Positions 9,622 to 58,549 of a stretch of 64,000 nucleotides of DNA are shown here, one piece after another. The DNA is taken from the IMG/VR virus record IMGVR_UViG_2541047680_000004, one strand, 5' to 3'. The notes under the pieces are model-generated. The model did no database searches, was not told the origin of the DNA, and saw nothing but the letters and a program-made list of their open reading frames with translations. This DNA is from a virus. Taxonomy: Duplodnaviria > Heunggongvirae > Uroviricota > Caudoviricetes. The position numbers and the translations under genes are program-made. Within the stretch, counting starts at the first letter, position 1, and each line of letters opens with the position of its first letter.

Positions 9622-9664
9622 GTTGAATATGCTCCTTGATTTGGTGGGCTATCCTTGCCCCCAT

Positions 9665-9683
9665 TAAGTGTGTACCTACTTAT
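9665..9683. promoter_or_regulatory. family-2-like dyad (TAAGT..ACTTA)
   Basis: TAAGTGTGTACCTACTTAT in the J/tail-fiber intergenic gap. Confidence 0.25.
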
Positions 9684-9712
9684 TTTTACCGATATAAATA
9701 TTTTTTTCTACA

Positions 9713-28475: not shown

Positions 28476-30050
28476 TCACTCGTTCTCTTGAGTAGATGAG
28501 TCCCCATTCCCTCGGGGTTGATCTTGCCCTCTTTCTTGGGCTGCACCACGATCATAAGTAAGTGCTGACTTATTTTCAAGGGTATTTAGATCATTTTTTG
28601 GAGGAAAATTCAAGAGATCTTTATCAAATTCCTTTTTCATCGCCTCAGTAATGTTCGGGAAAATCTTCTCAATAAGCATTTCCATCTGGTGACGACGTAC
28701 AGAGTCCGGTGCCTGAAGTAATGACAGTTTCTCGGCAACAGAAAATTCATCAGTAAGGCCACGAATATCGAAACTTTCTGGATACGCAATTAAAGAGTGG
28801 TCTTCGTCCAGATCTACCCCCATCCATTTCGCAACCAGTAGCATGATTTGGCGTTCAGCCCTTTCCAGACGCTCTGCTTTTGTGACAAGCAAGCTATTTA
28901 CACGCTGGAAGTCATACATTTTTGCGGCACCAGATGAGTTATCGATTCCCTGTGCGTTGTCCTGCTTCGTTCGCTCACCAGCTACACCAACTGAATGGTA
29001 GATTTCGTTAATCACCGTCTTAATCGTAGTGATGATCATCTGAGCTTGTTTCGGGTCTGGTGACAGATAAAACGGCTGGTTTCCACCTTCAGAATCGTAG
29101 GTGAAGACTCGCTTTGTGCCCATTTCAAGCACTTTAGTGTGGTTTTCATCACCAGGTAAAAGCGACTGTACTGGTATAGCCAACTGGCTAAATGTCTGAT
29201 CCTGAATAATGGCATCAAGGTTTGACAGATAGTTTGCAACCGCACGATCAAGATAAGCGATATCATCGATCAACGATGGGCTGAAATACGGTGATTCACT
29301 TTCTCCAATACAATCAACAGGAAACACAGGAACTACGCTGAGATTATGCTCACCGCTATCCTCTAAAATAACTTTTGCCTGACGGCGACCTGCTCCACCA
29401 GCGCCCTTCTTCACTTCCTCACGGAACAGATACCACTCGTTTTGTGTCCACAGACGATAACGTTGGTATTCCTGACCTGTAGAAGTAAAAGGATCTGCGT
29501 CATCGCGAGCGACTTCCACAATTAACGCCCATAACATATTCCCGTCGTCGTCCCATGCCACATCCAGCATTTGCTGAGGTGAAATCCAGTAGGCGTAGGC
29601 GCGAGCATCTTTCTTTTTCTCGTCAGCTACTGACTCAACATCACCACTCATCGTGCTATCGACAACAACCCATATGCGACCGTAAATAGACGACTGCAAA
29701 TCAATAGCGGCCATAAATGAGTCAATAGAGGCATTCTGGCGAGTCGCACGTTTCCAGAAATTGCGGATCTGCTCTGGTGCCTCTTCGATATTTCTATGAA
29801 TGTCTTCTTTAAAGAGATATTTGTTGATGAGGTTTACCACCTCACGAGTGTGGTTGAAGCGATAAGCACGTTCAACTCGCTCCTTAAACTCCTGATCTCC
29901 CTCTTTAAAGTAACGAAAGATATTGTCTGTAAACCAACCACGCCCGCCAGCGTAAGTGCTGGCGAGGAAGTCCCAATGTTCTTTTTTCTTTTCGTATTCC
30001 GGGTGGCGTCGCGCCACCAGATCCTTAATTTGTTTGTCGTTCAATTCCAT
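28476..30050 (-). CDS. portal protein
   Basis: 524 aa immediately downstream of TerL; size and position. Confidence 0.7.
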   Translation of the reverse strand: MELNDKQIKDLVARRHPEYEKKKEHWDFLASTYAGGRGWFTDNIFRYFKEGDQEFKERVERAYRFNHTREVVNLINKYLFKEDIHRNIEEAPEQIRNFWKRATRQNASIDSFMAAIDLQSSIYGRIWVVVDSTMSGDVESVADEKKKDARAYAYWISPQQMLDVAWDDDGNMLWALIVEVARDDADPFTSTGQEYQRYRLWTQNEWYLFREEVKKGAGGAGRRQAKVILEDSGEHNLSVVPVFPVDCIGESESPYFSPSLIDDIAYLDRAVANYLSNLDAIIQDQTFSQLAIPVQSLLPGDENHTKVLEMGTKRVFTYDSEGGNQPFYLSPDPKQAQMIITTIKTVINEIYHSVGVAGERTKQDNAQGIDNSSGAAKMYDFQRVNSLLVTKAERLERAERQIMLLVAKWMGVDLDEDHSLIAYPESFDIRGLTDEFSVAEKLSLLQAPDSVRRHQMEMLIEKIFPNITEAMKKEFDKDLLNFPPKNDLNTLENKSALTYDRGAAQERGQDQPRGNGDSSTQENE

Positions 30051-30061
30051 TTGAATAACCT

Positions 30062-30081
30062 TAGATAATTACTTACCTATC
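30062..30081. promoter_or_regulatory. family-2 dyad-like motif (GATAATTACTTACCTATC)
   Basis: in the 26-bp gap between terL stop and portal start. Confidence 0.3.
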
Positions 30082-31333
30082 GAGAACCACCAAGAATAAC
30101 ACGGTTTTTGACTGGATACCTACGATGTACTGGATAGCCCAATGCGTCTGCACTATGCTCAATGCCACCTGTCTTATCCATATCTCGTGTTCCAGGCTTG
30201 TAGATGACTTTTTCCAGTGAATCAATCAAATGCTTGCACTTCGGATCGATATACAGCCGGATATCTCCAGATGCGGTCATCAGCATTCGGTTAACAGCAT
30301 TAACACGATCCGCAATTGGCGGGTGCTTTTTCGAATAATCGACACGTAAGAATCCCTTCTCTTTGAATATGTCGACGTCAGACTCCCCGCGAGCATGTTG
30401 GCGATAAGCACCTGCCGGATCTGGAAATATCGTTATCTGTGATTTCCAGCGCCAGAAGCGTCTCTCAAGCTCATCACAAACCTCTGCCGTGTTAGAGGAA
30501 AAGAGCACCAATTCATCAATTGCCCATAGCTCACCATTTGGCTGAGGTTGCAAAATTACGGAAGACATCGGGTCAATGTTGAAGTCCTGCCCTACCCATA
30601 TAGGTAACCGAGGGTTGAACTGAAGCGGTTTTACATGCACGTTACGATCGAACGGGTAGTAAACGCGCCCGGACATGTTCTCAAAGCTGGCCAGGTACTC
30701 CTGAGCGAACGATTTGGGGTCCATATCGTTCTTAGCAGCTTCAATTTCCGCCGTAGGTACAAACGGAGAATCGGCAGTTACAAACTGCCAGCTCTTCCAC
30801 TGTCCCTTTCTTTGCAGCTCTACGTTCTGGCCTATAGTCCACAGTTTGTGAAATTCCGAGAAGCCTTTTGGCGTACCAATGATCAGTGCACCGCCGCGTG
30901 TCGATGAAAGAGTAGGTCGTAACACCTTGTACCAAGTGTCAGCCTTCATATCCTGAAATTCATCAAGCACTACAAAATGCAACGCTACGCCGCGCAGAGT
31001 GTCAGGCTTATCAGCACCTTTGAGGGCGATCTCCGAACCGTTCTTCAACACGATTGTCATCGTGGTGTCGTTCTTTTTCCTAACCCACTTACGAGGCAGA
31101 ACTTCCTGTAGATCGTCCCACAAAATCTGGCGAGCCATCTGGTAAGTAGGAGCGACATACCAGACCCTTTGCTTTTTTTCCTTTGCCGCCGCACGAATAA
31201 TAGTGGAGATCGACAACCGGGATTTTCCCCAGCGTCGACCAGCACAAACAACTTTAAATCGATGCGGAGACTGGAAGACTTTCATCTGTCCAGAATGCAG
31301 TTGCACAAGACTGAGCGAGGACGGGATTGCCAT
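30077..31333 (-). CDS. terL: terminase large subunit
   Basis: Walker A GRRWGKS, Walker B-like VLDEF, C-terminal nuclease-like region; 418 aa. Confidence 0.9.
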   Translation of the reverse strand: MAIPSSLSLVQLHSGQMKVFQSPHRFKVVCAGRRWGKSRLSISTIIRAAAKEKKQRVWYVAPTYQMARQILWDDLQEVLPRKWVRKKNDTTMTIVLKNGSEIALKGADKPDTLRGVALHFVVLDEFQDMKADTWYKVLRPTLSSTRGGALIIGTPKGFSEFHKLWTIGQNVELQRKGQWKSWQFVTADSPFVPTAEIEAAKNDMDPKSFAQEYLASFENMSGRVYYPFDRNVHVKPLQFNPRLPIWVGQDFNIDPMSSVILQPQPNGELWAIDELVLFSSNTAEVCDELERRFWRWKSQITIFPDPAGAYRQHARGESDVDIFKEKGFLRVDYSKKHPPIADRVNAVNRMLMTASGDIRLYIDPKCKHLIDSLEKVIYKPGTRDMDKTGGIEHSADALGYPVHRRYPVKNRVILGGSR

Positions 31334-31965
31334 TATTCGTCCTCCCCTTCACTTCCATCATCTGTCGCATCAAATTCGCTTAGAGCTTCTTCTTCCAACG
31401 TCTCAAGCAATTCGTCATCGATGATTTCAGGCTCGTCGTCTTCCTGACGTAATTTCGCCACCTGGGAAGGCGTAAGCTCACCAAATACCAGATTCGGAAT
31501 TTCTTCCTCGTCATTTTCCGCATGATCCATGCCCAATGCTTTGGACGAAACTTCAAAGCATTTTGCAAGGGTATTACTGGCTCTCTGTAAGCTCTTGAGA
31601 GAATCCTCAATCGCCCCTAAAGGCTTACCCTCACGTTTGGCCGTAGTGACTTCGACCATCACCATCTGCCCCAACGCATACGCCCAGCCGTCATAACGTG
31701 TACGACGTTCTTCTATCTTTTCCGCACGGGCTTTAGCGCGAAGCTCTGCGTCAGATTTAAGAGACTCACGAACCATCTTCCCAACAGAGTCCGCGCCTTT
31801 CTCTAATCCTCGCTTTTTGAAATGTCTGGAGAGTGTTTCACGACGAATGCCGTACTCTTCCTCCAGCTTTGAGAGTGTATATTCGCCTGACGTCCATTTG
31901 GCTTCAGCTTCGGCCCACTCCGCTGGTGTCAGGCGAGTTTTTACCTCGTCTTTTTCGACCGTCAT
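31333..31965 (-). CDS. terS: terminase small subunit (candidate)
   Basis: 210 aa; N-terminal HTH-like region, very acidic C-terminus; ATGA overlap with terL. Confidence 0.55.
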   Translation of the reverse strand: MTVEKDEVKTRLTPAEWAEAEAKWTSGEYTLSKLEEEYGIRRETLSRHFKKRGLEKGADSVGKMVRESLKSDAELRAKARAEKIEERRTRYDGWAYALGQMVMVEVTTAKREGKPLGAIEDSLKSLQRASNTLAKCFEVSSKALGMDHAENDEEEIPNLVFGELTPSQVAKLRQEDDEPEIIDDELLETLEEEALSEFDATDDGSEGEDE

Positions 31966-31984
31966 AGATCCCTCTAAAACACAC

Positions 31985-32004
31985 AGAGCGCGTCCATGCG
32001 CTCT
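31985..32004 (-). other. hairpin immediately upstream of terS RBS
   Basis: perfect 7-bp stem AGAGCGC/GCGCTCT with loop GTCCAT. Confidence 0.4.
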
Positions 32005-32020
32005 AAAACAACTTGTTTAC
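32005..32020. promoter_or_regulatory. family-1 operator-like dyad (AAAACAA-C-TTGTTT)
   Basis: matches dispersed consensus AGAAAACAAnTTGTTTTCT; upstream of terS. Confidence 0.45.
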
Positions 32021-32030
32021 TGCATCTGCT

Positions 32031-32049
32031 AACCAACTTGTTTTCTGGG
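32031..32049. promoter_or_regulatory. family-1 operator-like dyad
   Basis: AACCAACTTGTTTTCTGGG; second copy upstream of terS. Confidence 0.4.
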
Positions 32050-32080
32050 GTGTTTAATTAGGTCTGGCATGTCTTACGAA

Positions 32081-32136
32081 GCCTGCTTCCGTATATATTT
32101 AATAAGTTACTTATTATTTATATATACAGATGCAGG
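32081..32136. repeat. large AT-centred palindromic element, copy 1
   Basis: arms GCCTGCTTCCGTATAT / ATATACAGATGCAGG around a palindromic AT-rich centre; GGTCTGG 13 nt upstream; related copy at 61660-61716. Confidence 0.6.
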
Positions 32137-32160
32137 TCTTTAAATAAGCTCCCAGACCGA

Positions 32161-32427
32161 TTACATCACCAGTAACTTCGCTTTGGCTCGACCTAAAGTG
32201 GTTAACCCAAGAGTTCGGCGGTGATAGCGATTGTCACTGCGTTGGCGCGTATGCCCTTTCTCCACCAGCCCCTTTTTTATCAGAGCGCGAATTGAGAACT
32301 GGATACTTTGCTTGGTTGTCTTGTACGGCAAAACTTCAAGCAATTCGTCCAGGTCAAGTAGATGACCTCGCTCATAACCGAGATTGAGCGTTTTGATGAT
32401 GTCCTTTTGTTTATCGGTTAACGTCAT
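32161..32427 (-). CDS. small winged-helix-like DNA-binding protein (candidate)
   Basis: 88 aa; helix-turn-wing-like pattern TKQSIQFSIRALIKKGLVEK and basic C-terminus. Confidence 0.4.
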   Translation of the reverse strand: MTLTDKQKDIIKTLNLGYERGHLLDLDELLEVLPYKTTKQSIQFSIRALIKKGLVEKGHTRQRSDNRYHRRTLGLTTLGRAKAKLLVM

Positions 32428-32436
32428 GGCAAATCC

Positions 32437-33327
32437 TTATGCCGGTAAAGCAATTTCTAACGGTTTATCCAAAGGTTGTTTGTCGAATGCCAGCAGTGGC
32501 AGCGTGTCAGGCAGTCGACGGCCAAAGTCAGGGTTTCGGTACACACCATACAACGGAGACGTAAAGCTCAGGTTGTGAATGTCCTTGAGCAGCTTCACAA
32601 TGCTGGCCTCGTCCACCAGACTGTCGGCAATGTCCTGAATCGTCGTGCCACGATTCCGCCCAGCTTTTGCCAGGGAACTGTTCTTGTGGTAGTCCGCCAC
32701 CAGATCACGCAGTGCACGGCGACGACGAGACTCGCTCATTGCGAACAATTCTTTGACGATCGCCTCGTTATCACCCGGGTCGGAACGGAAATGGCGCTGG
32801 AATACACGCAGTGCACTTTCATAGCTCTTCGGTCGCTCAGGGCGGATGAACTTAAACCCTGCTTTCATGGCGAAGGGATTGTATTTGCTCATCGAGGACT
32901 GGATCTCAATGATTGGCCGGTCATGCATCCTGCTAACCAGGTTAATCATTCGATAAGAGACGCCTACGCCACGATACTGAGTATCCACAACTGAGCGACT
33001 GATCACCGCAAAGTTGTTATTCACGTACCGACCCCAGTACTGGTTAGCCACGGTGGTATTAGTGGTTGGTTTCAACTTAGGAAACATGCGGTGGCGAGGT
33101 GCCAGCAGTAGTTTCGGGTAAGCCATAACCACGACGCCCACCAGACGGTCATCAAGTTCGCAGCGATAGTAAGTTGGCGCGAAAGGTTTGCCGTCTGTTT
33201 TGTAGTGAAGCGACTTAAGAGCGTGCCAGTCCTCTACAGTTCCCTTTGTGACAGTCATTCGCTCCAGAAAGTCCAGATGACGCGGAAACTCTTCAGGGCG
33301 GTAGCGTTTAATGATGATGTCCGTCAT
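32437..33327 (-). CDS. GNAT-like acetyltransferase domain protein with C-terminal extension
   Basis: VVDTQYRGVGVSYRMI (R-x-x-G-x-G-like) and NPFAMKAGFKFI resemble GNAT motifs A and B; 296 aa. Confidence 0.45.
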   Translation of the reverse strand: MTDIIIKRYRPEEFPRHLDFLERMTVTKGTVEDWHALKSLHYKTDGKPFAPTYYRCELDDRLVGVVVMAYPKLLLAPRHRMFPKLKPTTNTTVANQYWGRYVNNNFAVISRSVVDTQYRGVGVSYRMINLVSRMHDRPIIEIQSSMSKYNPFAMKAGFKFIRPERPKSYESALRVFQRHFRSDPGDNEAIVKELFAMSESRRRRALRDLVADYHKNSSLAKAGRNRGTTIQDIADSLVDEASIVKLLKDIHNLSFTSPLYGVYRNPDFGRRLPDTLPLLAFDKQPLDKPLEIALPA

Positions 33328-33989
33328 AAATGAACCTCATCATGACTACCATTGTGATATTCCACCTTCACGCGTTCTTTGTAGTGCTTGGTGATCTGCA
33401 TATCCGGGCGCAGCGCGTTCTTCAGGTCTTCGTGAGTCGTCGCCACCATTACCGTCGCACCAACCTTTCGAGCGGCACGCTGGAGGTTAGATGCCACAAC
33501 CTGAGCGGTTACACGGTCTAGAACAGCACCGAACTCGTCAGCAGCCCACACTTTAGCGCCTGACTCAATCAGTTTGGCAATCTTGAGACGATATTTCTGA
33601 CCGTCTGACATTTCAGAAGGCTTGCGAACAAACAGATATGCATCGTTCAGACCAGCCATAGATAACAACCCAAGCGCATCGCTGGTCGTTTTGCCCAACT
33701 GATCGATGACGTTAACCTCATTATCGAAGGTAAAATCATCGATGGAGGCTACAGACAGCCCTTCATCCTTCATCTGTCGTTGCAACTCGCGCAGCACAAC
33801 GGATTTGCCGGAACCGGATTGGCCGGTGATGTACACCACATCGCCCTGCTTCACTTCCAGCTCCAGATTGTCGTAAAGCGTCCACTCTTTTTCGTCCAGG
33901 CCAAGCCCGAACGACTCAGCGATTTCCAACGTGCGCGTGGTTTTATTTACGCGTGTCTGAAACGATACGTTGATGATGTATTTGCTCAT
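33324..33989 (-). CDS. small ABC-type ATPase
   Basis: Walker A GQSGSGKS, signature-like MSDGQKYRL, Walker B VWAADEF, H-loop TTHE; 221 aa, no transmembrane partner adjacent. Confidence 0.8.
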   Translation of the reverse strand: MSKYIINVSFQTRVNKTTRTLEIAESFGLGLDEKEWTLYDNLELEVKQGDVVYITGQSGSGKSVVLRELQRQMKDEGLSVASIDDFTFDNEVNVIDQLGKTTSDALGLLSMAGLNDAYLFVRKPSEMSDGQKYRLKIAKLIESGAKVWAADEFGAVLDRVTAQVVASNLQRAARKVGATVMVATTHEDLKNALRPDMQITKHYKERVKVEYHNGSHDEVHL

Positions 33990-34654
33990 ACAGCCATCTC
34001 CCCGGAAGAGATCTTCTCCGCATATGCCACAAATGCGTCTACCCCGCTTTCTCCCGTCATTTCTTCCATGTGGGCAAGCAAATCACCAACAACAATGGCA
34101 GAGCCAGCAGGAAGCGTTTTAAAGCCCAATACGTCGACAACACGTACTTCTTCCGCTGCAACTTCACGACTGATCTCGGTGTGTTCATCCTTCTGTCGTT
34201 TAGTTTCTTCGCCAAGATCGATAACTAGCGAGTCGGTGTCCATTTCTTCTGTCATGCTGCCAACGAGAACATTCAACTCACGCTCTTCAAAGCCGAAAAC
34301 CTCGATATCGTCCAGAACAAGCGACTCAAGCTCTTTCTGTAGCTTAATTGCATCGTAATCAATGCTGGCAAGTCGGTTATCTTCAAGGCGCTTCGCACGA
34401 ACCTCGTCATCACTGAGATCATCGCGAACAATAACCGGTACGCGCTCAAGTCCAGCAAAAATTGCAGCCTCACGGCGGCCGTGGCCAGTAATAATTACGT
34501 CGTTCTTATCGACCGTAATTGGCTGGTCAAATCCGCGCTTTTTAATGGCTGCGGCTAGATCTCGGATCTGCTGTTCATCATGCTTTTTGGCATTCATCTC
34601 ATAGGGAATAAGATCTGCCGGGTCGCGATATACGATTTCAAACTTTTTGGTCAT
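33986..34654 (-). CDS. ParB/Srx-like N-terminal domain protein
   Basis: motif ITGHGRREAA (GxxRxxA-type ParB box); start set at internal Met overlapping upstream stop. Confidence 0.7.
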   Translation of the reverse strand: MTKKFEIVYRDPADLIPYEMNAKKHDEQQIRDLAAAIKKRGFDQPITVDKNDVIITGHGRREAAIFAGLERVPVIVRDDLSDDEVRAKRLEDNRLASIDYDAIKLQKELESLVLDDIEVFGFEERELNVLVGSMTEEMDTDSLVIDLGEETKRQKDEHTEISREVAAEEVRVVDVLGFKTLPAGSAIVVGDLLAHMEEMTGESGVDAFVAYAEKISSGEMAV

Positions 34655-35334
34655 TACATACGCTCCTTGTAGTAGTCGACCAGCCACACCAGAGCCTCAC
34701 CAGCGTTCTCCATTTCATTACCGGTGTTAATAGCCTGCTCTTTGATGATGTTTTTTATGGTTTCTGCAACACGATCTGACGCATCGAAAGTTACTTTGAA
34801 GCGCATGGTCTGATGTTCCGCCCCCACACGTTCGGTTTTCTCTCGTTTGTCGGTATCGACAGGCTCATCACTACCACGAGACAACGCCTCCAGTGCTTCA
34901 AGGTCGATTGCCGCCTCTTTTGCTAAAACCATCGAGATTTCGTCGTCATACGGGGCGATTTCAGACAGTTGATAGTCAAGTTCTGACTGAATTTCTTCAA
35001 TGAAGCGTTGCAATGCGATTTGGTCGTCTTCACCGTATCGCTCGTTGTCCACCAGTGACATCTGTTTAGCTACGACATCGCTAATTTTGCCCACAGAAAG
35101 CACTGGAACCGTTGAAATTCCTTGCTCAATAGCGGCACGCCAGCGATGTTCGCCGCCGAGGATTTCAAAAAATCCATCTTCAAGTTCACGAGCCAAAATT
35201 GGCTTAAAAAAGCCCAATTTTTCGATAGAACCTTTCAGTTTTTCAAAATTCTGCGCACCAACCGAATTGGTGTTCCAGGTATTCGGGCGAAGGTTGGCAA
35301 CATCAACCTGCAAAATCGTGATTTTTACATCCAT
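34654..35334 (-). CDS. ParB/Srx-like N-terminal domain protein
   Basis: motif ILGGEHRWRAA; first gene of the minus-strand operon; start codon uncertain (ATG at 35334 or GTG at 35352). Confidence 0.7.
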   Translation of the reverse strand: MDVKITILQVDVANLRPNTWNTNSVGAQNFEKLKGSIEKLGFFKPILARELEDGFFEILGGEHRWRAAIEQGISTVPVLSVGKISDVVAKQMSLVDNERYGEDDQIALQRFIEEIQSELDYQLSEIAPYDDEISMVLAKEAAIDLEALEALSRGSDEPVDTDKREKTERVGAEHQTMRFKVTFDASDRVAETIKNIIKEQAINTGNEMENAGEALVWLVDYYKERM

Positions 35335-35352
35335 TTTATTGCTACAATCCAC

Positions 35353-35416: not shown

Positions 35417-36976
35417 ATGACTGTTCGGATTGTATCTAACGCAGTTAATGCGCTTATTTCTGGCGCAGATGACAAGGTAAAGCAACTGGTGCAACAGATG
35501 TTGAGCTACGAAGTCGAGACTGGCGACTGGAAGGGCACAAGCACAATGTTCAACTGGAGTAAAAACTCGTTCCCTGCAGGCTTTGCCAAGCCTGTAGCGG
35601 CGAACTTGAACAAGGCGGGCATCAAATGTGTTCATATCCGCAAAGACAAAGCCCCGGCGCTTGGAAAACCAAATCCGGCGGTTAACCCATTCCCATACAA
35701 TCCTGATTATGCGTATCAGGATCAGACTGTGGAAACACTGGTTCGAGAGGGAATGATGATTGCGCAGATCGCTACTGGTGGCGGGAAATCTAACGTTGCC
35801 TGCAAAGCAGCTGCACGTATCGGTCGAATGACATTATTTTTAACAACCCGCTCTGTTCTGATGTTTCAAATGGCCGAAAACTTCCAGAGATCCATCGACT
35901 ACCGCGCCGAAAATGGCGAACCGTGGTTAAAAGACCAAAAGGTTGGAGTCATTGGCTCGGGTGAGTTCCAGGTATCACGACATATCAACGTCGCTACAGT
36001 TCAAACTCTTGCAAGTTTCCTCGAAGAACCACCACGCGATGCAACACCAGATAAGAAAAGCTACCACCTCAAACGTCGGGAGTTGGTGAAACGCTTCCTT
36101 TCAAGTGTCTCTCTTCTTATTCTGGAAGAGGCGCATGAGTCTTCAGGCTCAAATTTCTATGACATCGCCAGATTATGTGTGAACGCAGACTATCGTCTGG
36201 CGCTTACAGCCACGCCGTTCATGAAGGATTCGACGGAAGCCAACATGCGCCTGATGGCGGTGGCCGGGCGAATTGAAATTAAAGTCACAGAAAAGTACCT
36301 GATTGATCGAGGCATTCTGGCAAAGCCGTACTTCCTTTATCATAAAGTTGCCTACAAGCCAGACGAGGCCAGAATCAAGGCCGAACTTGCCAACAAACAC
36401 CTCAATTTTAGAGTTGGTATGAGCACCGCCTACCAAAAGGCTTATCAGTTGGGGATCGTGTATAATTTGGGACGTAACGAGGCCATTGTTCGCGAAGCAT
36501 TGCTCTATAAGCAACATTCTCTCAATTGTATGACTCTGGTTCGTCTTAAACGCCACGGGCAAATCCTGATGGAAATGATGAAAGAGTCCGGCCTTAGAGT
36601 TGACTTCATCTATGGGGAATCTAACCAGGCGACAAGGCAAGCAAAGCTGAACAGTTTAGCGTCTGGAGAAATAGATGTTTTAATAGGCTCGACTATTCTG
36701 GATGTCGGTGTTGATGTGCCAAGCGTTGGTGCGGTCATTCTTGCTGGTGGTGGGAAAGCAGAAGTTGAAATGAGGCAGCGTGTCGGTCGTGGCTTACGAG
36801 CAAAAAAAAATCAGGCAAACGTGTGTTTTATCACTGATTTCATTGACATTAGCAACAAATACCTGTTGTCTCACTCTTATGAGCGAAAACACATCATCGA
36901 CACCACACCTGGCTTTGCAGAAGGTGTATTGCCTATTGATGGAGCATTCGATTTTGGAGTTCTGAAACGAGATTAG
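35417..36976 (+). CDS. superfamily-2 DEAD/DEAH-type helicase
   Basis: motif I ATGGGKS, motif II ILEEAHE, motif III TATP, motif VI QRVGRGLR; about 100-aa N-terminal extension. Confidence 0.85.
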   Translation: MTVRIVSNAVNALISGADDKVKQLVQQMLSYEVETGDWKGTSTMFNWSKNSFPAGFAKPVAANLNKAGIKCVHIRKDKAPALGKPNPAVNPFPYNPDYAYQDQTVETLVREGMMIAQIATGGGKSNVACKAAARIGRMTLFLTTRSVLMFQMAENFQRSIDYRAENGEPWLKDQKVGVIGSGEFQVSRHINVATVQTLASFLEEPPRDATPDKKSYHLKRRELVKRFLSSVSLLILEEAHESSGSNFYDIARLCVNADYRLALTATPFMKDSTEANMRLMAVAGRIEIKVTEKYLIDRGILAKPYFLYHKVAYKPDEARIKAELANKHLNFRVGMSTAYQKAYQLGIVYNLGRNEAIVREALLYKQHSLNCMTLVRLKRHGQILMEMMKESGLRVDFIYGESNQATRQAKLNSLASGEIDVLIGSTILDVGVDVPSVGAVILAGGGKAEVEMRQRVGRGLRAKKNQANVCFITDFIDISNKYLLSHSYERKHIIDTTPGFAEGVLPIDGAFDFGVLKRD

Positions 36977-42953: not shown

Positions 42954-43283
42954 TTACTCGAATACTTCAAGAAACTCCTGAACGTCCCAATGCTGGACGA
43001 GGTGAAGATAGACCTTAGAAATCACGTCATTTTCGCTATCGCATGTGAAGTAGTACTTCTGGCTGCGGTTGTATGTGTCCACACAAAATTCGCTCATATC
43101 CATAAAGTCAGCATCTTCACCCATGTCGCAAATCATCAAAGCAGGTGCATCATCACGAGTCATCAGCTCCAGCACCCATCTTGAATTAATCAGAGTGGAA
43201 GACCAACCTTCCAGCTCATAGAACTGGTCAAACTCTTTTTGAGTTAATTTCTTGATTTGGTTGATGTCGATATTTGCAAACAT
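42954..43283 (-). CDS. hypothetical small acidic protein
   Basis: start set at MFANIDIN; Asp/Glu-rich. Confidence 0.45.
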   Translation of the reverse strand: MFANIDINQIKKLTQKEFDQFYELEGWSSTLINSRWVLELMTRDDAPALMICDMGEDADFMDMSEFCVDTYNRSQKYYFTCDSENDVISKVYLHLVQHWDVQEFLEVFE

Positions 43284-43294
43284 AAAGCAATCCT

Positions 43295-43329
43295 TAAACA
43301 ACATGTTTTCTTGATGGTGTTATTATCGC
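43295..43329. promoter_or_regulatory. family-1 operator/promoter element
   Basis: TAAACAACATGTTTTCTTGATGGTGTTATTATCGC. Confidence 0.5.
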
Positions 43330-43444
43330 AATAACGCACAGGCGAAAAAGGATTTTATTCCGGTGAATATGGTTTTGGCAGTGAGTTTTCAGGTTCAGTA
43401 CCGAGTATACTTTTTACATTATTCTGATTTAGTGGCCGAAGGTG

Positions 43445-43452
43445 GCTGGTGG
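43445..43452 (+). other. Chi sequence GCTGGTGG
   Basis: exact octamer about 200 bp from iteron cluster 2. Confidence 0.45.
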
Positions 43453-43644
43453 GCAGAATAATCCTCTCCCCGAAAACCTACTGAAATCGATTGTGACCCG
43501 TTGGCTGTCTGGCACAATTACGCTGTAGCTGGGCATTCAGAGGGAATCCAGCGGTAAGCAAGTCCGCCTACGTGAGCGCCTCTCTTCTTCCCGCACATTA
43601 CAGGTGGGTAGCCGCAACTCTCCCTCTCGCTATACCGGTACGCC

Positions 43645-43777
43645 GCCGTTCCTGAACCGGCATCGAGCCTTTTCCCGAAATCCACACAGGCAACTCGACC
43701 GTTTCCCTGAAAACCTCCAGCCGTTCCCCGAAGGCAACCCAGCCTTTTCTGTAGCGGGATGCAACCTTTTCCCTGTA
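43645..43777. repeat. iteron cluster 2 (six direct repeats, about 22-bp phasing)
   Basis: units at 43645, 43666, 43697, 43719, 43741, 43763 (e.g. GACCGTTTCCCTGAAAA); extra copy near 43470; same family as cluster 1. Confidence 0.65.
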
Positions 43778-44100
43778 TGGACCGAAGGCTGACCGTAGGG
43801 GTTTTACGGGGGATAAAATCAGGAGTTGAATAAATACGAAAAAGGAGGCGACACCCCTCCTTCCCTCCCCACTTATACATACCTGGCTTCTTCGCTATAC
43901 ATGTTGTGTTTTCTTCGTGTTTTATCTGTCTCAACCTCTCTATAGGCGTTAATGCTCACTCCTTCCAGAACCTTCTATACGGCGACTATTTCTGTTGGTG
44001 AATTGGGTGTGTTGTTCTCTCTGTCGGTGTATGTGGTTTCGTTCGTTTTGCGGTGGTTCTTCTATGGGGTGTTCTCGTCGTTTTGGTGATTGTTCTTCTC

Positions 44101-44460
44101 CGTGTATGGAGTAATGGCAGGTGGGCGATTCCTTTCGTTATTGTGTTTGAGTTGTTTGTCTGGAGTGTGTGAAAGGCTTTTGTAGTTATTCGTGTATTGG
44201 GTAATGGCGTTTCCCGTGATTGTTATGTTTCGTGTCTTTTGGGATTGAGAGAAACCTTGCGGTTACAGGCTTCGTTGGGGTTTCAGTGATTCTGGTGTTT
44301 CTTCGCTGTTTGGGTAATGGCGTGTCGTGGGTATCGCGCGTATGAATGTTTTCGGATTGCCTGTGAAAGTTAGGTTGGTTGTCCGGTAGCCTGGGGAGAA
44401 GAGGTGGGTCTTTTCGGTAGCCTGCCATAAAGAGGTTGGTTGTTTTGGGTAATGGTATAT
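44101..44460. repeat. direct repeats in GT-rich ORF-free region
   Basis: CGTGTAT(T)GG(A/G)GTAATGGC at 44101, 44191, 44304 and degenerate copy at 44437; strong G+T excess on plus strand across 43960-44700. Confidence 0.55.
44385..44455. repeat. about 70-bp G/T-rich repeat, copy B
   Basis: pairs with 41208-41280. Confidence 0.5.
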
Positions 44461-44701
44461 GTGTTATTTAGTTGTTTTGTTATGCCTGAAAATAAGTTGT
44501 TTATATGGTTGTGTAACGCAACGGGAGCGATTTTGAGCGTGTGTTTTTGTTGGTAGTGTGTTGAGTCGTCTGTGGTGAAAATTGGACGCTGTGGCGCTAT
44601 CTGCTGCGTAGAATTACGGGTATAAGAAGTGATGTGTGATAACGTCAATTTTTTAGACCAAATCGGGAGAAAGCGTTGATGTTTCGTTGATCTGTTATTT
44701 A

Positions 44702-44728
44702 GTTGTTTTCTTATTGGTATAAACAACC
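44702..44728. promoter_or_regulatory. family-1 half-site element
   Basis: GTTGTTTTCTTATTGGTATAAACAACC; would drive minus-strand transcription into the GT-rich region. Confidence 0.35.
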
Positions 44729-44845
44729 ATAACCTATTGATATTTAATGATGTGATTGCTGGTATGGGAGGGGAGTAGTGGCGATCAACGGGTTCTTATA
44801 GAAAAGAATCAAATTGTGACCGCCATTATCAATAAGTTGCAACCG

Positions 44846-45451
44846 TTAGTTGTTCAGATAAACATTTGGAACACGGACGTAGAACTTACTGTTACCGGTA
44901 AGTTCCAGAGTAATGTTAATGTCATTACCATTGTCTAGTGTAGCCGTCGCTCTATAGAACTTATCAGTTACCTTTTCGTCAATATTAACCTTGATGCATT
45001 TCGCCGCAGTAGAACCATTATGCTCTTTCAGAATAGTTGTCACGACAGGACATGCGGCTTCCTCAATGACGCCATCTTCCTGTTTCGGTATTACAATGAA
45101 GAATACGTAAGCCAGCAAGGTAACGACTATAATAAATGGCAGTCTACTGCTCTTTGTTATAGTCGCACGCTTCCATAGGTAGATTGGCATGAAAACTATT
45201 CCCCATAAAATAGCAGGTGGCTCATAGCCGGATTCCGAAATCGCCATTCTGTCAGCCACTAATAATCCGATGGCAGCTAAACTTCCAATTAATACAGCAT
45301 AATTTGCATACTCTTCGTTCGGAATGCCGAAGCAAATTGGAATAAAAGCTAAAATCCACGCATAAGTGTTATTCAAAGGTTTTTTTTGTTGGTTATTGGT
45401 TTCCATCACATCCATCTCATCACTTAAATTACTTGTATATATTATCAACAT
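44846..45451 (-). CDS. membrane protein (three or four N-terminal TM helices plus soluble C-terminal domain)
   Basis: hydrophobic segments WILAFIPICF, VLIGSLAAIGLLV, AILWGIVFMPIYL, FIIVVTLLAYVFFIV; AT-rich segment. Confidence 0.5.
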   Translation of the reverse strand: MLIIYTSNLSDEMDVMETNNQQKKPLNNTYAWILAFIPICFGIPNEEYANYAVLIGSLAAIGLLVADRMAISESGYEPPAILWGIVFMPIYLWKRATITKSSRLPFIIVVTLLAYVFFIVIPKQEDGVIEEAACPVVTTILKEHNGSTAAKCIKVNIDEKVTDKFYRATATLDNGNDINITLELTGNSKFYVRVPNVYLNN

Positions 45452-46210: not shown

Positions 46211-48244
46211 TTACTTAACCTGGTGGCCAGGTTTAGCACCAGCATCCGGGCTTAACAGGAAGATATCTTTCCCGCCGGGGCCAGCAGCCATCACCATGCC
46301 TTCAGAGATACCGAAGCGCATTTTACGCGGAGCCAGGTTAGCCACCATAATTGTGTGACGACCAATCAGTGCCTGTGGGTCTGGATAAGCAGAACGGATG
46401 CCTGAGAAGACATTACGCTTTTCACCACCGAGATCCAGCGTCAGGCGCAGCAGCTTGTCAGAACCTTCAACAAACTCTGCGTTTTCAATCAGCGCCACGC
46501 GCAGGTCAACTTTAGCGAAGTCGTCAAAGGTGATGGTTTCCTGAATCGGGTCGTCTGCCAGTGGGCCAGTTACCGGTGCGGCTGTGGCTTTCACTTCTTC
46601 TTTGGATGCTTCCACCAGTGCTTCCACCTGTTTCATATCGATACGGTTATACAATGCCTTGAACGGATTCACTTTATGGCCCAGCAGCGGTTGCTGGATA
46701 CCATCCCAGGTCAGTTCTGTATTCAGGAATGCTTCTGCACGTTCAGTCAGTTTCGGCAGTACCGGTTTCAAGTAAGTCATCAGCACGCGGAACAGGTTAA
46801 TGCCCATAGAGCAAATCGCCTGCAGATCGGCATCGCGTCCTTCCTGCTTCGCCACCACCCACGGAGCCTGTTCATCAACATAGCGGTTAGCCAGGTCAGC
46901 CAGTGCCATGATTTCACGGATAGCTTTACCAAATTCGCGGCTTTCCCATGCTTCGCCAATCACTTCAGCGGCATCAGTAAAGGTTTTGTACAGTTGCGGG
47001 TCAGCCAGTTCGCTTGCCAGCACGCCGTCAAAACGCTTGTTGATAAAGCCTGCATTACGGGAGGCCAGGTTAACCACTTTGTTCACGATATCGGCATTCA
47101 CGCGCTGAACGAAATCCTCCAGGTTGAGATCGATATCATCAATGCGCGAAGAGAGTTTCGCAGTGTAGTAGTAACGCAGGCTGTCGGCGTCAAAATGATT
47201 CAGCCAGGTGCTGGCTTTAATAAAGGTACCGCGAGACTTAGACATCTTCGCGCCGTTCACCGTCACATAGCCATGAACAAACAGGTTGGTCGGCTTGCGG
47301 AAGTTGCTGCCTTCCAGCATTGCTGGCCAGAACAGACTGTGGAAGTAAACAATATCTTTACCGATGAAGTGGTACAGCTCGGCGGTGGAGTCTTTCTTCC
47401 AGTATTCATCGAAGCTTACGCTGTCGCCGCGCTTGTCGCACAGATTCTTGAAAGAACCCATATAGCCAATCGGCGCATCTAGCCAGACGTAGAAATATTT
47501 ACCCGGCGCGTTCGGAATTTCAAAACCGAAATACGGCGCGTCGCGGGAGATATCCCACTGTTGCAGGCCAGATTCAAACCACTCCTGCATTTTATTTGCC
47601 ACCTGCTCCTGCAACGCACCGCTGCGGGTCCATGCCTGCAACATTTCGCTGAAAGAGGGCAGATCAAAGAAGAAGTGTTCAGAATCACGCATTACCGGCG
47701 TAGCGCCAGAAACCACCGATTTCGGCTCGATCAATTCAGTCGGGCTGTAGGTCGCGCCGCAGACTTCGCAGTTATCGCCGTATTGATCCGGGGATTTACA
47801 TTTCGGGCAGGTGCCTTTCACAAAACGATCCGGCAGGAACATGCCTTTTTCCGGGTCGTACAACTGAGAGATAGTGCGATTTTTAATAAAACCGTTCTCT
47901 TTCAGGCGAGTATAGATAAGCTCAGACAACTGACGGTTCTCTTCGCTGTGCGTCGAGTGATAGTTGTCATAGCTGATGTTAAAGCCTGCGAAATCAGTCT
48001 GGTGTTCCTGACTCATTTCGCCAATCATCTGCTCCGGTGTGATACCAAGTTGCTGTGCTTTCAGCATGATCGGCGTACCGTGGGCATCGTCGGCACAGAT
48101 GAAATTAACCTCGTGGCCGCGCATTCGCTGGTAACGAACCCAGACATCAGCCTGGATGTGCTCCAGCATATGGCCGAGGTGGATTGAGCCGTTAGCGTAC
48201 GGCAGCGCGCACGTCACCAGAATTTTCTTCGCGACTTGGGTCAT
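46211..48244 (-). CDS. metG: methionine--tRNA ligase
   Basis: 677 aa from [25 protein letters not shown] (HIGH-type) with KMSKS; C-terminal tRNA-binding domain; near-identical to enterobacterial MetG as I recall it. Confidence 0.97.
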
Positions 48245-48401
48245 AGTAGGCATTACTTCTTTGTAGTGAAAAGGGGCTTGATAGTAACAAAATGGCCTTA
48301 TGTCTGCCATGTGATAACAGCATTTCTCATAAATGATTAAATGTCGCAGCTGGAGTACACTACAAGGCGACAATTGCGCAAATTAAAATAAAGGAGACGG
48401 G

Positions 48402-49502
48402 ATGAGCGAGTCCAAATCGCCGGATGCCCTGAGAGCAATGGTAGCCGGTACGCTGGCTAATTTTCAGCACCCAACCCTGAAACACAACCTGACTACGCTT
48501 AAAGCGTTACACCATGTTGCGTTGATGGATGACACACTGCATGTCGAACTAATCATGCCTTTCGTGTGGAATAAGCCTTTTGAAGACCTGAAAGAGCAAT
48601 GTAGTGGTGATCTGCTCCGTATCACTGGCGCAAAGGCTATTGACTGGAAGCTGTCGTACAACATTGCCACGCTTAAGCGCGTCAAAAACCAACCAGGCAT
48701 TAATGGTGTTAAGAATATTATCGCCGTAAGCTCAGGCAAGGGCGGTGTAGGCAAATCGTCCACAGCAGTAAACTTGGCACTGGCTTTGGCTGCTGAAGGT
48801 GCGAAAGTTGGTATTTTGGATGCCGATATCTATGGTCCATCAATTCCAACCATGCTGGGCGCGGAAAACCAACGTCCAACCTCACCGGACGGTACTCACA
48901 TGGCACCTATCATGTCTCATGGCCTGGCAACCAACTCTATTGGTTATCTGGTCACCGACGACAATGCAATGGTGTGGCGTGGACCGATGGCCAGCAAGGC
49001 GCTGATGCAGATGTTGCAGGAAACACTGTGGCCTGATCTGGACTATCTCGTTCTCGATATGCCGCCGGGCACTGGTGATATTCAATTGACGCTGGCGCAG
49101 AACATTCCTGTAACTGGTGCGGTTGTGGTAACTACGCCGCAAGACATCGCGCTGATCGATGCGAAGAAAGGCATTGTGATGTTCGAAAAAGTCGAAGTGC
49201 CGGTACTAGGTATCGTCGAAAACATGAGTGTGCATATTTGCAGTAACTGCGGTCATCACGAGCCAATTTTTGGCACCGGTGGCGCACAGAAACTGGCCGA
49301 GAAATACAACACGCAGTTGTTAGGCCAAATGCCACTTCATATCTCTCTTCGTGAAGATCTGGATAACGGAACACCAACCGTTATTAGTCGTCCAGATAGC
49401 GAATTTACGGCTATTTATCGTGACCTCGCAGATCGCGTTGCTGCCCAAATGTATTGGCAAGGTGAAGTAATACCTGGCGAAATCGCATTCCGCGCAGTGT
49501 GA
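48402..49502 (+). CDS. apbC: Fe-S cluster carrier ATPase Mrp/ApbC
   Basis: P-loop SSGKGGVGKS, CxxC motif (CSNCGH); divergent from metG as in E. coli. Confidence 0.95.
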   Translation: MSESKSPDALRAMVAGTLANFQHPTLKHNLTTLKALHHVALMDDTLHVELIMPFVWNKPFEDLKEQCSGDLLRITGAKAIDWKLSYNIATLKRVKNQPGINGVKNIIAVSSGKGGVGKSSTAVNLALALAAEGAKVGILDADIYGPSIPTMLGAENQRPTSPDGTHMAPIMSHGLATNSIGYLVTDDNAMVWRGPMASKALMQMLQETLWPDLDYLVLDMPPGTGDIQLTLAQNIPVTGAVVVTTPQDIALIDAKKGIVMFEKVEVPVLGIVENMSVHICSNCGHHEPIFGTGGAQKLAEKYNTQLLGQMPLHISLREDLDNGTPTVISRPDSEFTAIYRDLADRVAAQMYWQGEVIPGEIAFRAV

Positions 49503-49503
49503 T

Positions 49504-49530
49504 AAAAAGGTGGTGCAATGCACCACCTAA
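49504..49530 (-). terminator. terminator hairpin between convergent mrp and UmuD'-like gene
   Basis: inverted repeat GGTGGTG / CACCACC with U-run on minus-strand RNA. Confidence 0.5.
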
Positions 49531-49539
49531 ACAGTTCTC

Positions 49540-49929
49540 CTACATCACAGGACAATCATCAAACTCGCCACTTCTTGCGTCGTTGATAATGTGAGTGATC
49601 ACACCAAACACGGCATTGCTGCCCGTGCATCCATCATCATCCTTTGGCAATGCTTCCTTCTTACCAGTTCTTAAATCCTCCAGATGCTGACGTGGATACT
49701 TCCGGTATCTTTTTACGCGATATTCCCCATCCAGAGCACATACAAGAAGAGATCCATCAACAGGAGTCAGTGAGGAATCGACCACCAGCAATGCACCCTG
49801 CAATATTCCCTCACGATGATGACTATCAGCCGCCCTCATGAAGTAGGTCGCTGAAGGATGTCTAATTATCTGCTGATCAAGAGAAATACGGCTCTCAGCA
49901 TAATCCGCCGCAGGAGAAGGGAAGCCCAT
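49540..49929 (-). CDS. UmuD'-like S24 peptidase-fold protein (HumD-like)
   Basis: begins MGFPSPAADY, aligning with UmuD from the RecA cleavage site onward; Ser (ADSH) and Lys (RVKR) positions conserved; in-frame TAA 15 nt upstream of ATG; RBS AAGAGG. Confidence 0.85.
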   Translation of the reverse strand: MGFPSPAADYAESRISLDQQIIRHPSATYFMRAADSHHREGILQGALLVVDSSLTPVDGSLLVCALDGEYRVKRYRKYPRQHLEDLRTGKKEALPKDDDGCTGSNAVFGVITHIINDARSGEFDDCPVM

Positions 49930-49945
49930 AATACTCGCCTCTTAA

Positions 49946-49965
49946 TGCTGTATATGCATACAGTA
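49946..49965. promoter_or_regulatory. LexA (SOS) box
   Basis: TGCTGTATATGCATACAGTA = CTGT-N8-ACAG, 16 nt upstream of the UmuD'-like start. Confidence 0.8.
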
Positions 49966-57784: not shown

Positions 57785-57796
57785 AATTACACCATT

Positions 57797-57830
57797 AAAT
57801 AATTTGTTTTCTGATTGGTGTAATTATCGC
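57797..57830. promoter_or_regulatory. family-1 operator/promoter element
   Basis: AAATAATTTGTTTTCTGATTGGTGTAATTATCGC. Confidence 0.5.
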
Positions 57831-57925
57831 AAACTTGAAAAGGCATAAAAGCTGCATTCATAGGCGTTACAGCAGATTTAAGGCGTAAAAATGGGGGCTT
57901 TCGCCCCCTGTCGACTGGTGCAGTA

Positions 57926-58492: not shown

Positions 58493-58510
58493 GTGTTTTT
58501 CCTAATGCTT

Positions 58511-58549
58511 AAACAAGTTGTTTTCTTATTGGCTTTATTGTGATGTGGC
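58511..58549. promoter_or_regulatory. family-1 operator/promoter element
   Basis: AAACAAGTTGTTTTCTTATTGGCTTTATTGTGATGTGGC. Confidence 0.5.

Follow-up and report, generated by a model that had tools for sequence, protein, structure and literature searches.

The DNA considered here is a window of 64,000 nucleotides, the whole stretch that was analysed, from the IMG/VR virus record IMGVR_UViG_2541047680_000004, a member of the Caudoviricetes. Between its terminase genes and a divergent helicase gene lies a block of five genes encoding two ParB-like proteins (ParB1 and ParB2), an ABC-type ATPase, a GNAT-like protein and a small winged helix-turn-helix (wHTH) protein (Table 1). An initial annotation, made from the sequence alone, had described five tightly coupled and co-directional genes, which was borne out: all five open reading frames (ORFs) were confirmed on the minus strand at 32161-35352, and their junctions from ParB1 to the wHTH gene read TAATG, ATGA and ATGA, followed by a 9-nt spacer with an AAGGA ribosome-binding site, so that translational coupling is indicated. 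The ORF starts proposed at that time deviate slightly from RefSeq, in which ParB1 starts at 35334 and not at 35352, and ParB2 at 34654 and not at 34687. None of the five proteins contains a membrane segment (maximum KD19 1.46).

A 7-kb stretch around the module is 100% identical to pECOH89, a plasmid of Escherichia coli H89 (NC_023916.1; window coordinates are those of this record minus 33494), and shows 98-99% identity to the Escherichia phages Cyrano, PhiR41_1 and CMS-2020a and 83% to the Salmonella phage SSU5. Judging from these identities, the source element is an SSU5-like phage-plasmid, that is, a plasmid prophage. The block matched 793 plasmids of PLSDB, with a query coverage of at least 80% in 705 of them, from Klebsiella, Escherichia, Enterobacter, Yersinia, Salmonella and other genera.

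Table 1. Genes and features of the module and its surroundings (window coordinates)
Feature	Position	Strand	Remarks
ParB1, ParB/Srx N-domain protein without helix-turn-helix (HTH)	34654..35334	-	226 aa, RefSeq start
ParB2, ParB/Srx N-domain protein without HTH	33986..34654	-	222 aa, RefSeq start
Soluble ABC-type ATPase, N-terminal half of split ABC~GNAT	33324..33989	-	221 aa
GNAT-fold acyltransferase-like protein, C-terminal half of split enzyme	32437..33327	-	296 aa
Winged-helix (wHTH) DNA-binding protein (predicted)	32161..32427	-	88 aa
Intergenic gap between module and terS	31966..32160	-	195 bp; palindrome and terminator-like hairpin
terS-like gene	31333-31965	-	phrog_867, RefSeq annotation
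terL	30077-31333	-	Terminase_6N/6C, RefSeq annotation
Portal	28476-30050	-	phrog_2, RefSeq annotation
UvsW-like DEAD/DEAH helicase, divergent from module	35417..36976	+	ResIII/DEAD/Helicase_C

The proteins of the module

The ATPase matches Pfam ABC_tran (PF00005; 50.1 bits, 5.8e-13, against a cutoff of 25) and keeps the Walker A (GQSGSGKS at residue 56), signature (MSDGQ at 127), Walker B (VWAADE at 147) and H-loop (TTH at 184) motifs, in agreement with its earlier description as a soluble ABC ATPase with complete motifs. Its matches in the PDB are nucleotide-binding domains of transporter and ABC-F type, and an NCBIfam scan of the module returned generic ABC matches and sub-threshold ParB matches only. 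The companion protein has the GNAT fold that had been assigned to it, with a core at about residues 20-165 followed by a helical C-terminal domain of about 130 aa, and it is basic (net charge +15). Motif A, which contacts the pyrophosphate of CoA (R/Q-x-x-G-x-G/A), is found as QYRGVG at 117, with R119 and G122 invariant in 27 homologs, and is conserved as RGxGxG in fused forms of the protein; this conservation favours an acyl-CoA donor. The protein of the window has no Pfam match, while fused relatives surpass the 20.7-bit cutoff of Acetyltransf_1 (27.4 bits for Pmp13_0048 of a Pasteurella phage, 22.5 for a metagenomic locus, L218). A sequence search of the PDB with the GNAT-like protein found nothing, matches to AlkD at E~1 being noise.

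These fused relatives change the view of both genes. An exhaustive profile search with the GNAT-like family recovered 877 relatives, many of them of 440-560 aa with the GNAT-like domain in their C-terminal half, and Pfam detected ABC_tran in the N-terminal half of fused relatives together with weak GNAT matches in several. The order within the fused proteins, ABC then GNAT, is that of the two genes of the window. Moreover, the consensus of 30 fused proteins and the ATPase of the window have in common the motifs VAEAFGLG / GDIxYITGDSGSGKS / ELSDGQKYRYRLAK / DEFCSxLDRxTAKVVA, the first of which occurs in the window as IAESFGLG, a family-specific N-terminal motif shared with the fused proteins. 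In tblastn searches the fused protein P0160 spanned both genes in SSU5-like phages, hhalign of profile A1 against profile A8 gave 93.6%, and Pmp13_0048 matched the fused profile at 99.95% (E 5e-38); as a query, the ATPase of the window retrieved 77 of 78 fused proteins from the minimal cassettes described below. The same gene order and the shared family-specific motifs argue that the ABC and GNAT genes are, on sequence comparison, a split and translationally coupled form of a single ABC~GNAT enzyme. Their initial treatment as independent components was thus not upheld, the two being fused in most relatives, and the fused form was found in hundreds of viral contigs.

A label given to the GNAT-like protein by JGI and one curated phage record, COG2401/MK0520 or 'ABC-type ATPase fused to a predicted acetyltransferase domain', anticipated this architecture, which is confirmed here in relatives; otherwise it is an annotation name without function, and nothing relevant on COG2401 or MK0520 was found in the literature. 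Public names of the ABC~GNAT genes include 'ABC transporter', 'ABC iron siderophore transporter, fused permease and ATPase', 'hemin importer ATP-binding subunit' and 'oligopeptide transport system', and the ParB gene beside them is often annotated as 'DNA modification methylase'; all these look like systematic mis-annotations. An ABC transporter was considered and rejected, since there is neither a permease domain or transmembrane segment nor a permease gene in any neighbourhood examined. One ABC~GNAT protein of 847 aa (P0165) carries an intein (Hint and LAGLIDADG) within its ABC domain.

Regarding the ParB-like proteins, the ParB/Srx fold proposed for both is supported by Pfam ParB_N (PF02195; cutoff 26.3), with 49.9 bits (3.3e-13) for ParB1 and 35.0 bits (1.5e-8) for ParB2, and by the Box II motif GxxRxxA, which reads GEHRWRA at residue 61 of ParB1 and GHGRREA at residue 57 of ParB2. 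The paralogy claimed for the pair is confined to their N-terminal parts (about 115 residues; 33% identity, E 5e-10). No HTH was detected in either protein by Pfam, and their net charges are -18 (ParB1) and -22 (ParB2). Both reach 43 bits with TIGR00180, below its cutoff of 58.45 and in an alignment limited to the N-domain, and ParB2 matches Spo0J (1vz0) at 9e-6. ParB1 belongs with phrog_723 (2e-79) and ParB2 with phrog_930 (2e-112). A further family, phrog_498, annotated as DNA methyltransferase, matches ParB2 (5e-32) and ParB1 (4e-17) only over profile positions 29-179 of 633, and no Pfam methyltransferase domain was found in either protein. ParB2 also matched the N-terminal region of PADLOC MTase_II (2.7e-17), and N-domains of its type turned up in 288 phage records, many of which name a methyltransferase. 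As a query ParB2 retrieved the upstream ParB in 52 of 78 minimal-cassette loci, down to E 8e-28, and ParB1 matched these proteins weakly. By sequence, then, ParB2 is the conserved partner type, of the same subtype as the single ParB of minimal cassettes, and ParB1 an extra paralog specific to the SSU5-like supergroup. Profile and structure searches thus confirmed the ParB and ABC folds on which the initial annotation had staked its proposal, and they turned up no homolog with an established routine role.

The 88-aa protein was modelled with AlphaFold 2 from a shallow alignment (pLDDT 82.8), and the model has an H1-b-H2-H3-wing topology that Foldseek superimposed with probability 1.0 and TM-scores of 0.67-0.76 on 2pg4, MarR, MepR and PadR, archaeal wHTH proteins being also matched. 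Both the model and Foldseek agree with the original fold call, and the protein is predicted to be a winged helix of the MarR/PadR type. It is basic (net charge +9) and matches phrog_900 (2e-45). Syntenic orthologs occur in the related loci L003-L005, where the gene directly follows the GNAT gene, with a 4-nt overlap in L003 and L004.

As for the position of the block 'directly upstream of terS', the adjoining order is correct, although the gap recorded in Table 1 separates them. It holds an AT-rich palindrome (32092-32124) with flanking inverted repeats (32082-32136) and, about 20 nt ahead of the terS ATG, a hairpin with an 8-bp stem and a T-run (32005-31984). Scans of the sequence against shuffles revealed no enrichment of promoter-like sites (2 against 4.1 expected) or terminator-like sites (4 against 4.6 expected), and the terminator call next to terS is made because L003 and L005 have a hairpin and T-run of different sequence at the same position, not on the strength of the scan. 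This conservation suggests that the hairpin is a real terminator and that the five genes form their own transcription unit in the SSU5-like lineage, divergent from the helicase. The linear records of SSU5 and Cyrano both start and end at ~32099/32100, within the palindrome, a break that may represent a cos or pac site or else a deposition convention; no published data on the SSU5 genome termini were found.

Conservation and distribution of the cassette

Relatives at 43-47% identity occur in an Ectothiorhodospira genome, a 3.3-Mb metagenomic chromosome and a Tara ocean contig. There the divergent helicase is followed by ParB, ParB, ABC, none to three small inserts, GNAT-like, wHTH, a gap, terS, terL and portal, and cultured phages of Pseudomonas (nickie group), Rhizobium (RHEph10 group), Stenotrophomonas and Xanthomonas, 105-120 kb in size, have the same arrangement. 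The adjoining helicase is itself syntenic in L003-L005 and L177. All nine genes were found in 72 of 83 related loci, and nearly all exceptions are cut off by contig ends, which points to a core block and not to a variable accessory island. The neighbourhood analysis thus gives the block a firm place as a syntenic core of the SSU5-like supergroup. It is not a rare module, nor is it confined to phage-plasmids.

In distant SSU5-like relatives one to three small genes, including a Phage_gp49_66 gene and one for a RyR-domain protein, are inserted at the ABC-GNAT junction (L003 6961-7999; L004 7705-7995; L005 7598-7997; L177 5576-5911), which makes the split junction an insertion hotspot. Of the full-length SSU5-like loci, L050 (IMGVR_UViG_2609459856_000007) alone showed neither wHTH nor terS; its GNAT ORF is slightly longer (7992-8918), and a local rearrangement or a frameshift may have occurred there.

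A search of cultured phages with the fused form uncovered a minimal cassette, in which ParB is followed by ABC~GNAT, in some cases by terS, and then by terL, in small phages unrelated to one another. In Leptospira phages LE3 and LE4 a ParB-like gene precedes a 366-aa ABC~GNAT, three small genes, terL and portal. In the lambdoid Pasteurella phage Pmp13 the order is Q antiterminator, lysis genes, ParB, ABC~GNAT, terS, terL and portal; Pmp13_0048 passes the Pfam Acetyltransf_1 threshold and its partner that of ParB_N. The statement that lambda has nothing comparable is therefore right for lambda itself, which lacks the module, and not for this lambdoid phage, which has the cassette in the same slot. 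In Streptococcus pyogenes 315.4 and S. mitis MismyG the order is ParB, ABC, GNAT, ASCH, a small gene and terL; in Lactococcus P335 phages it is the Alt regulator, Orf23, Orf24 (ABC), Orf25, Orf26, terS and terL; and at the left genome end of Gordonia phage Axumite gene 1 encodes ParB, gene 2 ABC~GNAT and gene 4, after gene 3, the terminase.

Scanning IMG/VR with seven minimal fused proteins yielded at least 596 confirmed relatives, among which 78 loci were kept for counting. The ORF immediately upstream of the fusion matched ParB_N in 43 of 74 cases and GmrSD_N in 2 more. The first large ORF downstream (n=61) matched Terminase_6N in 37 cases, Terminase_3 in 22, TerL_ATPase in 8, GpA in 3 and T7-type terminases in 3, and this diversity of TerL families ties the cassette to a position before or around the terminase genes and not to one packaging enzyme. 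Two of these 61 ORFs, nearly all of which are terminases, had Intein_splicing matches (the terL-sized ORFs of L243 and L245). A second IMG/VR group of more than 561 relatives has the order terL, ABC~GNAT, with Terminase_6N as the upstream neighbour in 40 of 54. To judge from these sequence searches, the minimal cassette is pervasive in unrelated phages; no description of a ParB and ABC~GNAT cassette was found in the literature.

A fused form of about 480 aa (L095-L174) lies at contig ends, pointing outward: 53 of 75 loci have under 3 kb beyond it, in 17 the contig ends exactly with its stop codon, and integrases lie downstream in 3. This placement probably reflects trimming at provirus boundaries, with the gene at the prophage edge.

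Other genes accompany the enzyme recurrently. In at least 24 metagenomic contigs it is fused to a polymerase (PolB~ABC~GNAT) within a replication module with Prim-Pol, RecA and 5'-3' exonuclease; in L008 and L009 (8001-11783) the product is a 1260-aa protein with the exonuclease and polymerase of a family-B DNA polymerase. Unfused polymerase neighbours comprise PolIII-alpha, PolA, PolB and Y-family enzymes. Links to DNA-binding proteins extend from the wHTH protein of the window to PadR/HTH_34 neighbours and, in one relative, a C-terminal fusion to TFIIB repeats. In at least six locus types and two gene orders, PanD and a CoA-transferase-III-like protein of about 225 aa abut the enzyme (L218 106-4808; also L222/L223/L232, L229, L236, L242 and L245). 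The order in L218 is ParB_N, ABC_tran with Acetyltransf_1, Asp_decarbox (106 bits), CoA_transf_3, a 169-aa ORF of the size of terS and Terminase_6N, with each named domain above its Pfam threshold. This pairing suggests, by gene content, a dedicated acyl donor derived from beta-alanine; no PanD or CoA-transferase homolog was found in the 64-kb window.

ABC~GNAT has a Formyl_trans_N protein as its partner in Burkholderia phage phiE255, a Porphyromonas phage and Gordonia phage Axumite, from hosts in three phyla (L180 1805-2452, which is Axumite gene 3; L181 4586-5200; L183 4619-5092). The Axumite protein is annotated as 'tRNA-methyltransferase' but matches Formyl_trans_N with 35.6 bits. In phiE255, which is Mu-like, the two genes come last in the tail operon, where Mu carries mom. 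Finally, ASCH genes occur as neighbours of the cassette, accounting for 2 of 109 intervening ORFs.

Several further features of the element lie apart from the module. The genes for a full-length methionine--tRNA ligase, metG, and an ApbC-type iron-sulfur carrier are annotated by RefSeq at 46671-48704 (-) and 48862-49962 (+), respectively. A phage-borne methionyl-tRNA synthetase is unusual and could bear on a tRNA-directed role of the module; no tRNA genes were found within the window. A phage N6-adenine methyltransferase is encoded at 62520-63113 (record 96014-96607) and a DUF4942 protein at 56880-58565 (record 90374-92059), the former giving the element at least one DNA-modification function besides the module. 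A full-length match to the IS10 antisense RNA (Rfam RNA-OUT, 98.8 bits) at 63830-63899 (-) indicates, by sequence, an IS10/Tn10-type element at the window end. For two stretches of about 1.5 kb each, 8259-9712 and 43279-44848, the PLSDB gene table, whose incompleteness is known, gives no coding sequence; one is flanked by tail fibre and tail protein genes and the other is set among small hypothetical genes.

Possible functions and comparison with known systems

The initial annotation could not match the block to a named system, and nothing found here contradicts it: PADLOC-DB v2 gave no system match, only generic P-loop and ParB-N matches, the latter reflecting likeness to ParB-methyltransferase fusions, and none for the GNAT-like protein. 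The functions it had listed as options fared differently, as DNA modification is now the best supported and defence has found no support. In this regard, the module may be a ParB-assisted and ATP-gated acyltransferase by which phage DNA is modified close to its packaging, a reading put forward tentatively and which falls somewhat short of being probable. Several lines of evidence were counted for it: the union of ATPase and GNAT in a single enzyme; the pre-terminase slot, which is independent of lineage and TerL type; the links to nucleic acids provided by polymerase fusions and neighbours, TFIIB repeats, wHTH and PadR neighbours and the intein; and the basic charge of the GNAT-like and wHTH proteins. 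To these were added the slot shared with ParB-methyltransferases together with the PanD, CoA-transferase, formyltransferase and ASCH partners, and the precedents of Mom, ParB-5mYOX and a ParB-acetyltransferase.

The closest comparison is with the ParB-methyltransferase fusions (phrog_498; PADLOC MTase_II, PDLC03229). Their ParB N-domain is of the same subtype (P..N.R.H / GHxRxxAA / DN) and they occupy the same slot before terS and terL, occasionally with an ASCH neighbour: in Lactobacillus phage CR191 the order is ASCH, a small gene, ParB-methyltransferase, terS and terL, and in Gardnerella phage vB_Gva_AB1 a terS-like gene, S-adenosylmethionine (SAM) synthetase and ParB-methyltransferase, with terL further on. 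They differ in having a SAM-dependent methyltransferase fused to ParB, in place of the separate ABC~GNAT, two ParBs and wHTH protein found here. By positional analogy with ParB-METHYLTRANSFERASES, the simplest reading would be a displacement of modules, in which a ParB-type cofactor is combined with alternative DNA-modifying catalytic modules. The ParB-CTPase fold is known to bind CTP, ATP or GTP and is often fused to methyltransferases in phages, and a GTP-binding ParB-acetyltransferase fusion also exists (PMC12704722). Moreover, in the ParB176-5mYOX176 pair an HTH-less phage ParB is required for the activity of a thymine dioxygenase on double-stranded DNA (PMC13229309). That ParB likewise has an N-terminal nucleotide-binding and a C-terminal domain, no obvious DNA-binding domain and a DNA-modifying partner; the partner is however an Fe(II)/2-oxoglutarate dioxygenase, there is no ABC ATPase and a linkage to terminase is undescribed.

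Mom of phage Mu, a late-expressed GNAT-fold enzyme, transfers glycine from Gly-tRNA onto the N6 of adenine in double-stranded DNA (PMC13219725). It acts alone, without ATPase or ParB and with a charged-tRNA donor, whereas the ABC~GNAT family keeps the acyl-CoA motif A and an ABC ATPase. Homology to Mom was rejected, with hhalign probabilities of 0.3% (A1) and 0.1% (A8), the shared 'HY' residues being coincidental at profile level. What is new with respect to the ParB-methyltransferase, ParB-5mYOX, Mom and TmcA systems is the catalytic architecture, ABC~GNAT in a ParB-partnered module; the genes have long been known, in PHROG and COG families and under misleading names, and the copy of the window is an ordinary member of the cassette.

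In the mechanism that we favour, binding of ATP would cause the ABC domains to dimerise and gate the engagement of the substrate, and the GNAT domain would pass an acyl group from acyl-CoA to a base of double-stranded phage DNA, at an amino group. The HTH-less ParB-fold proteins might serve as nucleotide-gated activators or loaders of the enzyme on duplex DNA, as with the ParB of the thymine dioxygenase, the ParB domain of ParB-methyltransferase fusions presumably working likewise, and the basic wHTH protein would supply DNA binding. The mark would be set on progeny DNA near packaging and could protect it from host nucleases in the next cell. In some lineages accessory enzymes would supply or tailor the acyl donor, making the module an acyl counterpart of the ParB-methyltransferase modules. 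That the substrate is DNA, that the chemistry is acylation, what the ParB and wHTH proteins do and which biological purpose is served are all inferred, in contrast to the folds, the motifs, the relation between split and fused forms, the pre-terminase position and the partner genes, which were directly observed.

A number of observations weigh against DNA acylation. Both ParB proteins are strongly acidic and have no DNA-binding domain. In the group with the order terL, ABC~GNAT, and beside the formyltransferase pairs of phiE255 and the Porphyromonas phage, ParB was not detected; a ParB as universal partner is ruled out by that group and by these two of the three pairs. The block is divergent from the helicase and has a terminator-like hairpin before terS, and late co-expression finds no support in the window. 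To our knowledge no modified base has been reported in the DNA of SSU5-like, P335-like or S. pyogenes phages despite routine sequencing and digestion. Exocyclic N-acyl groups are labile, so that a stable mark is not guaranteed, and N6-acyl adenine in particular is chemically unstable (PMC13219725). The best structural matches of the GNAT-like protein are small-molecule and protein N-acetyltransferases, TmcA is absent among the 60 structural matches listed, and there is no profile similarity to Mom. PanM/PanZ, a GNAT-fold acetyl-CoA sensor that matures the aspartate decarboxylase PanD (PMC3398536), offers by analogy an alternative precedent for a GNAT beside PanD; it is relevant to the PanD sub-variant only, as PanM is cellular and lacks an ABC domain, a ParB and a CoA-transferase partner. 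Lastly, ASCH proteins are N4-acylcytosine amidohydrolases and erasers of N4-acetylcytidine (ac4C) in tRNA (PMC6972931; 10.64898/2026.02.27.708502), and a specific inference of N4-acetylcytosine from their presence was considered and rejected. It was weakened by the low count given above and by the occurrence of ASCH also beside ParB-methyltransferases, which renders it uninformative on acyl chemistry.

The structural matches of the GNAT-like protein lead to the first alternative, in which the enzyme would acetylate a phage or host protein such as terminase, portal, a nucleoid protein or a defence sensor, regulating packaging or takeover with the ParBs as adaptors. This is unlikely: at least four TerL families lie downstream, so that there is no co-evolution with one packaging enzyme, and a protein substrate fits poorly with the polymerase fusions, with the slot shared with ParB-methyltransferases, and with PanD/CoA-transferase and formyltransferase as partners.

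Less likely still is a transferase directed at RNA, acylating tRNA or aminoacyl-tRNA in the manner of TmcA/NAT10 or of GNAT toxins, or using charged tRNA as the donor, and reprogramming late translation. TmcA/NAT10 is an ATP-dependent RNA cytidine N4-acetyltransferase which makes ac4C in tRNA with acetyl-CoA, and an ATPase joined to a GNAT follows the same logic (PMC13219725), an NTPase being coupled in TmcA to a GNAT that acylates the exocyclic amine of a nucleobase. The ASCH neighbours come from a family that erases N4-acetylcytidine (PMC6972931; 10.64898/2026.02.27.708502), the Formyl_trans_N partners recall Met-tRNA formyltransferase, the ABC domain resembles the ribosome-binding ABC-F proteins, and metG is on the element. 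Nevertheless, TmcA works on RNA through a RecD-like helicase and a tRNA-binding domain where an ABC nucleotide-binding domain is found here, and Pfam detected no RecD-like helicase, GNAT_acetyltr_2 or tRNA-binding domain in the five proteins; the ParB-fold partners, polymerase fusions and pre-terminase position point to DNA, ASCH is not exclusive to the cassette, and motif A favours an acyl-CoA donor.

The location immediately upstream of terS and terL in many phages, and the breaks of the SSU5 and Cyrano records in the adjacent palindrome, would also suit a packaging-site accessory that makes no covalent modification, the ParBs and wHTH protein binding or nicking near pac or cos and the ABC ATPase remodelling DNA for terminase loading; some ParB-fold domains are indeed nicking nucleases (PMC5512222). 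Such a role is very improbable, given that it leaves no task for a GNAT with an intact acyl-CoA motif, nor for the PanD/CoA-transferase and formyltransferase partners, that the cassette also occurs away from terminase genes (in the mom-like slot and in polymerase fusions), and that the ParBs are acidic and without HTH. Defence, superinfection exclusion or plasmid partition, to which the presence of ParB-fold proteins in partition and some defence systems and the plasmid nature of the prophage might point, can be given hardly any credence, with no PADLOC system match, no ParA, HTH or parS-like array, TIGR00180 scores below cutoff and an invariant core block, not a variable island, that is found also in integrated prophages and in phage genomes without plasmid typing. 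Partition as such was rejected: the block has no ParA/MinD-type gene (the neighbours are the ABC ATPase and the helicase), and it is present in non-plasmid phages.

DNA acylation can also be stated in a bolder form, which must be regarded as doubtful: ATP-driven N-acylation of nucleobases in duplex DNA would be an unrecognised class of modification, set just before packaging in thousands of phages (P335-type dairy phages, S. pyogenes prophages and SSU5-like resistance phage-plasmids among them), with ABC~GNAT as the writer, ParBs as activators and donor or tailoring enzymes diversifying the adduct. Acetyl-CoA would be the default donor, beta-alanyl-CoA would be used where PanD and CoA-transferase are present, and a formyl cap might be added where a formyltransferase is.

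If DNA modification is correct, a gene pair named as a transporter in thousands of phage genomes would be a DNA-modification enzyme of new architecture, acyl chemistry beyond Mom would join the repertoire of phage DNA modifications, and ParB-fold proteins would be seen for a second time as cofactors of enzymes that modify DNA. There would be implications, too, for the hosts that SSU5-like phage-plasmids, which spread resistance genes in Enterobacteriaceae, can infect and for how they evade restriction, and likewise for phages of industrial and clinical importance in Lactococcus and Streptococcus. The cassette is testable in culturable phages and, whatever its substrate, its fixed place before unrelated families of terminases marks it as a conserved, unexplained part of the late biology of phages.

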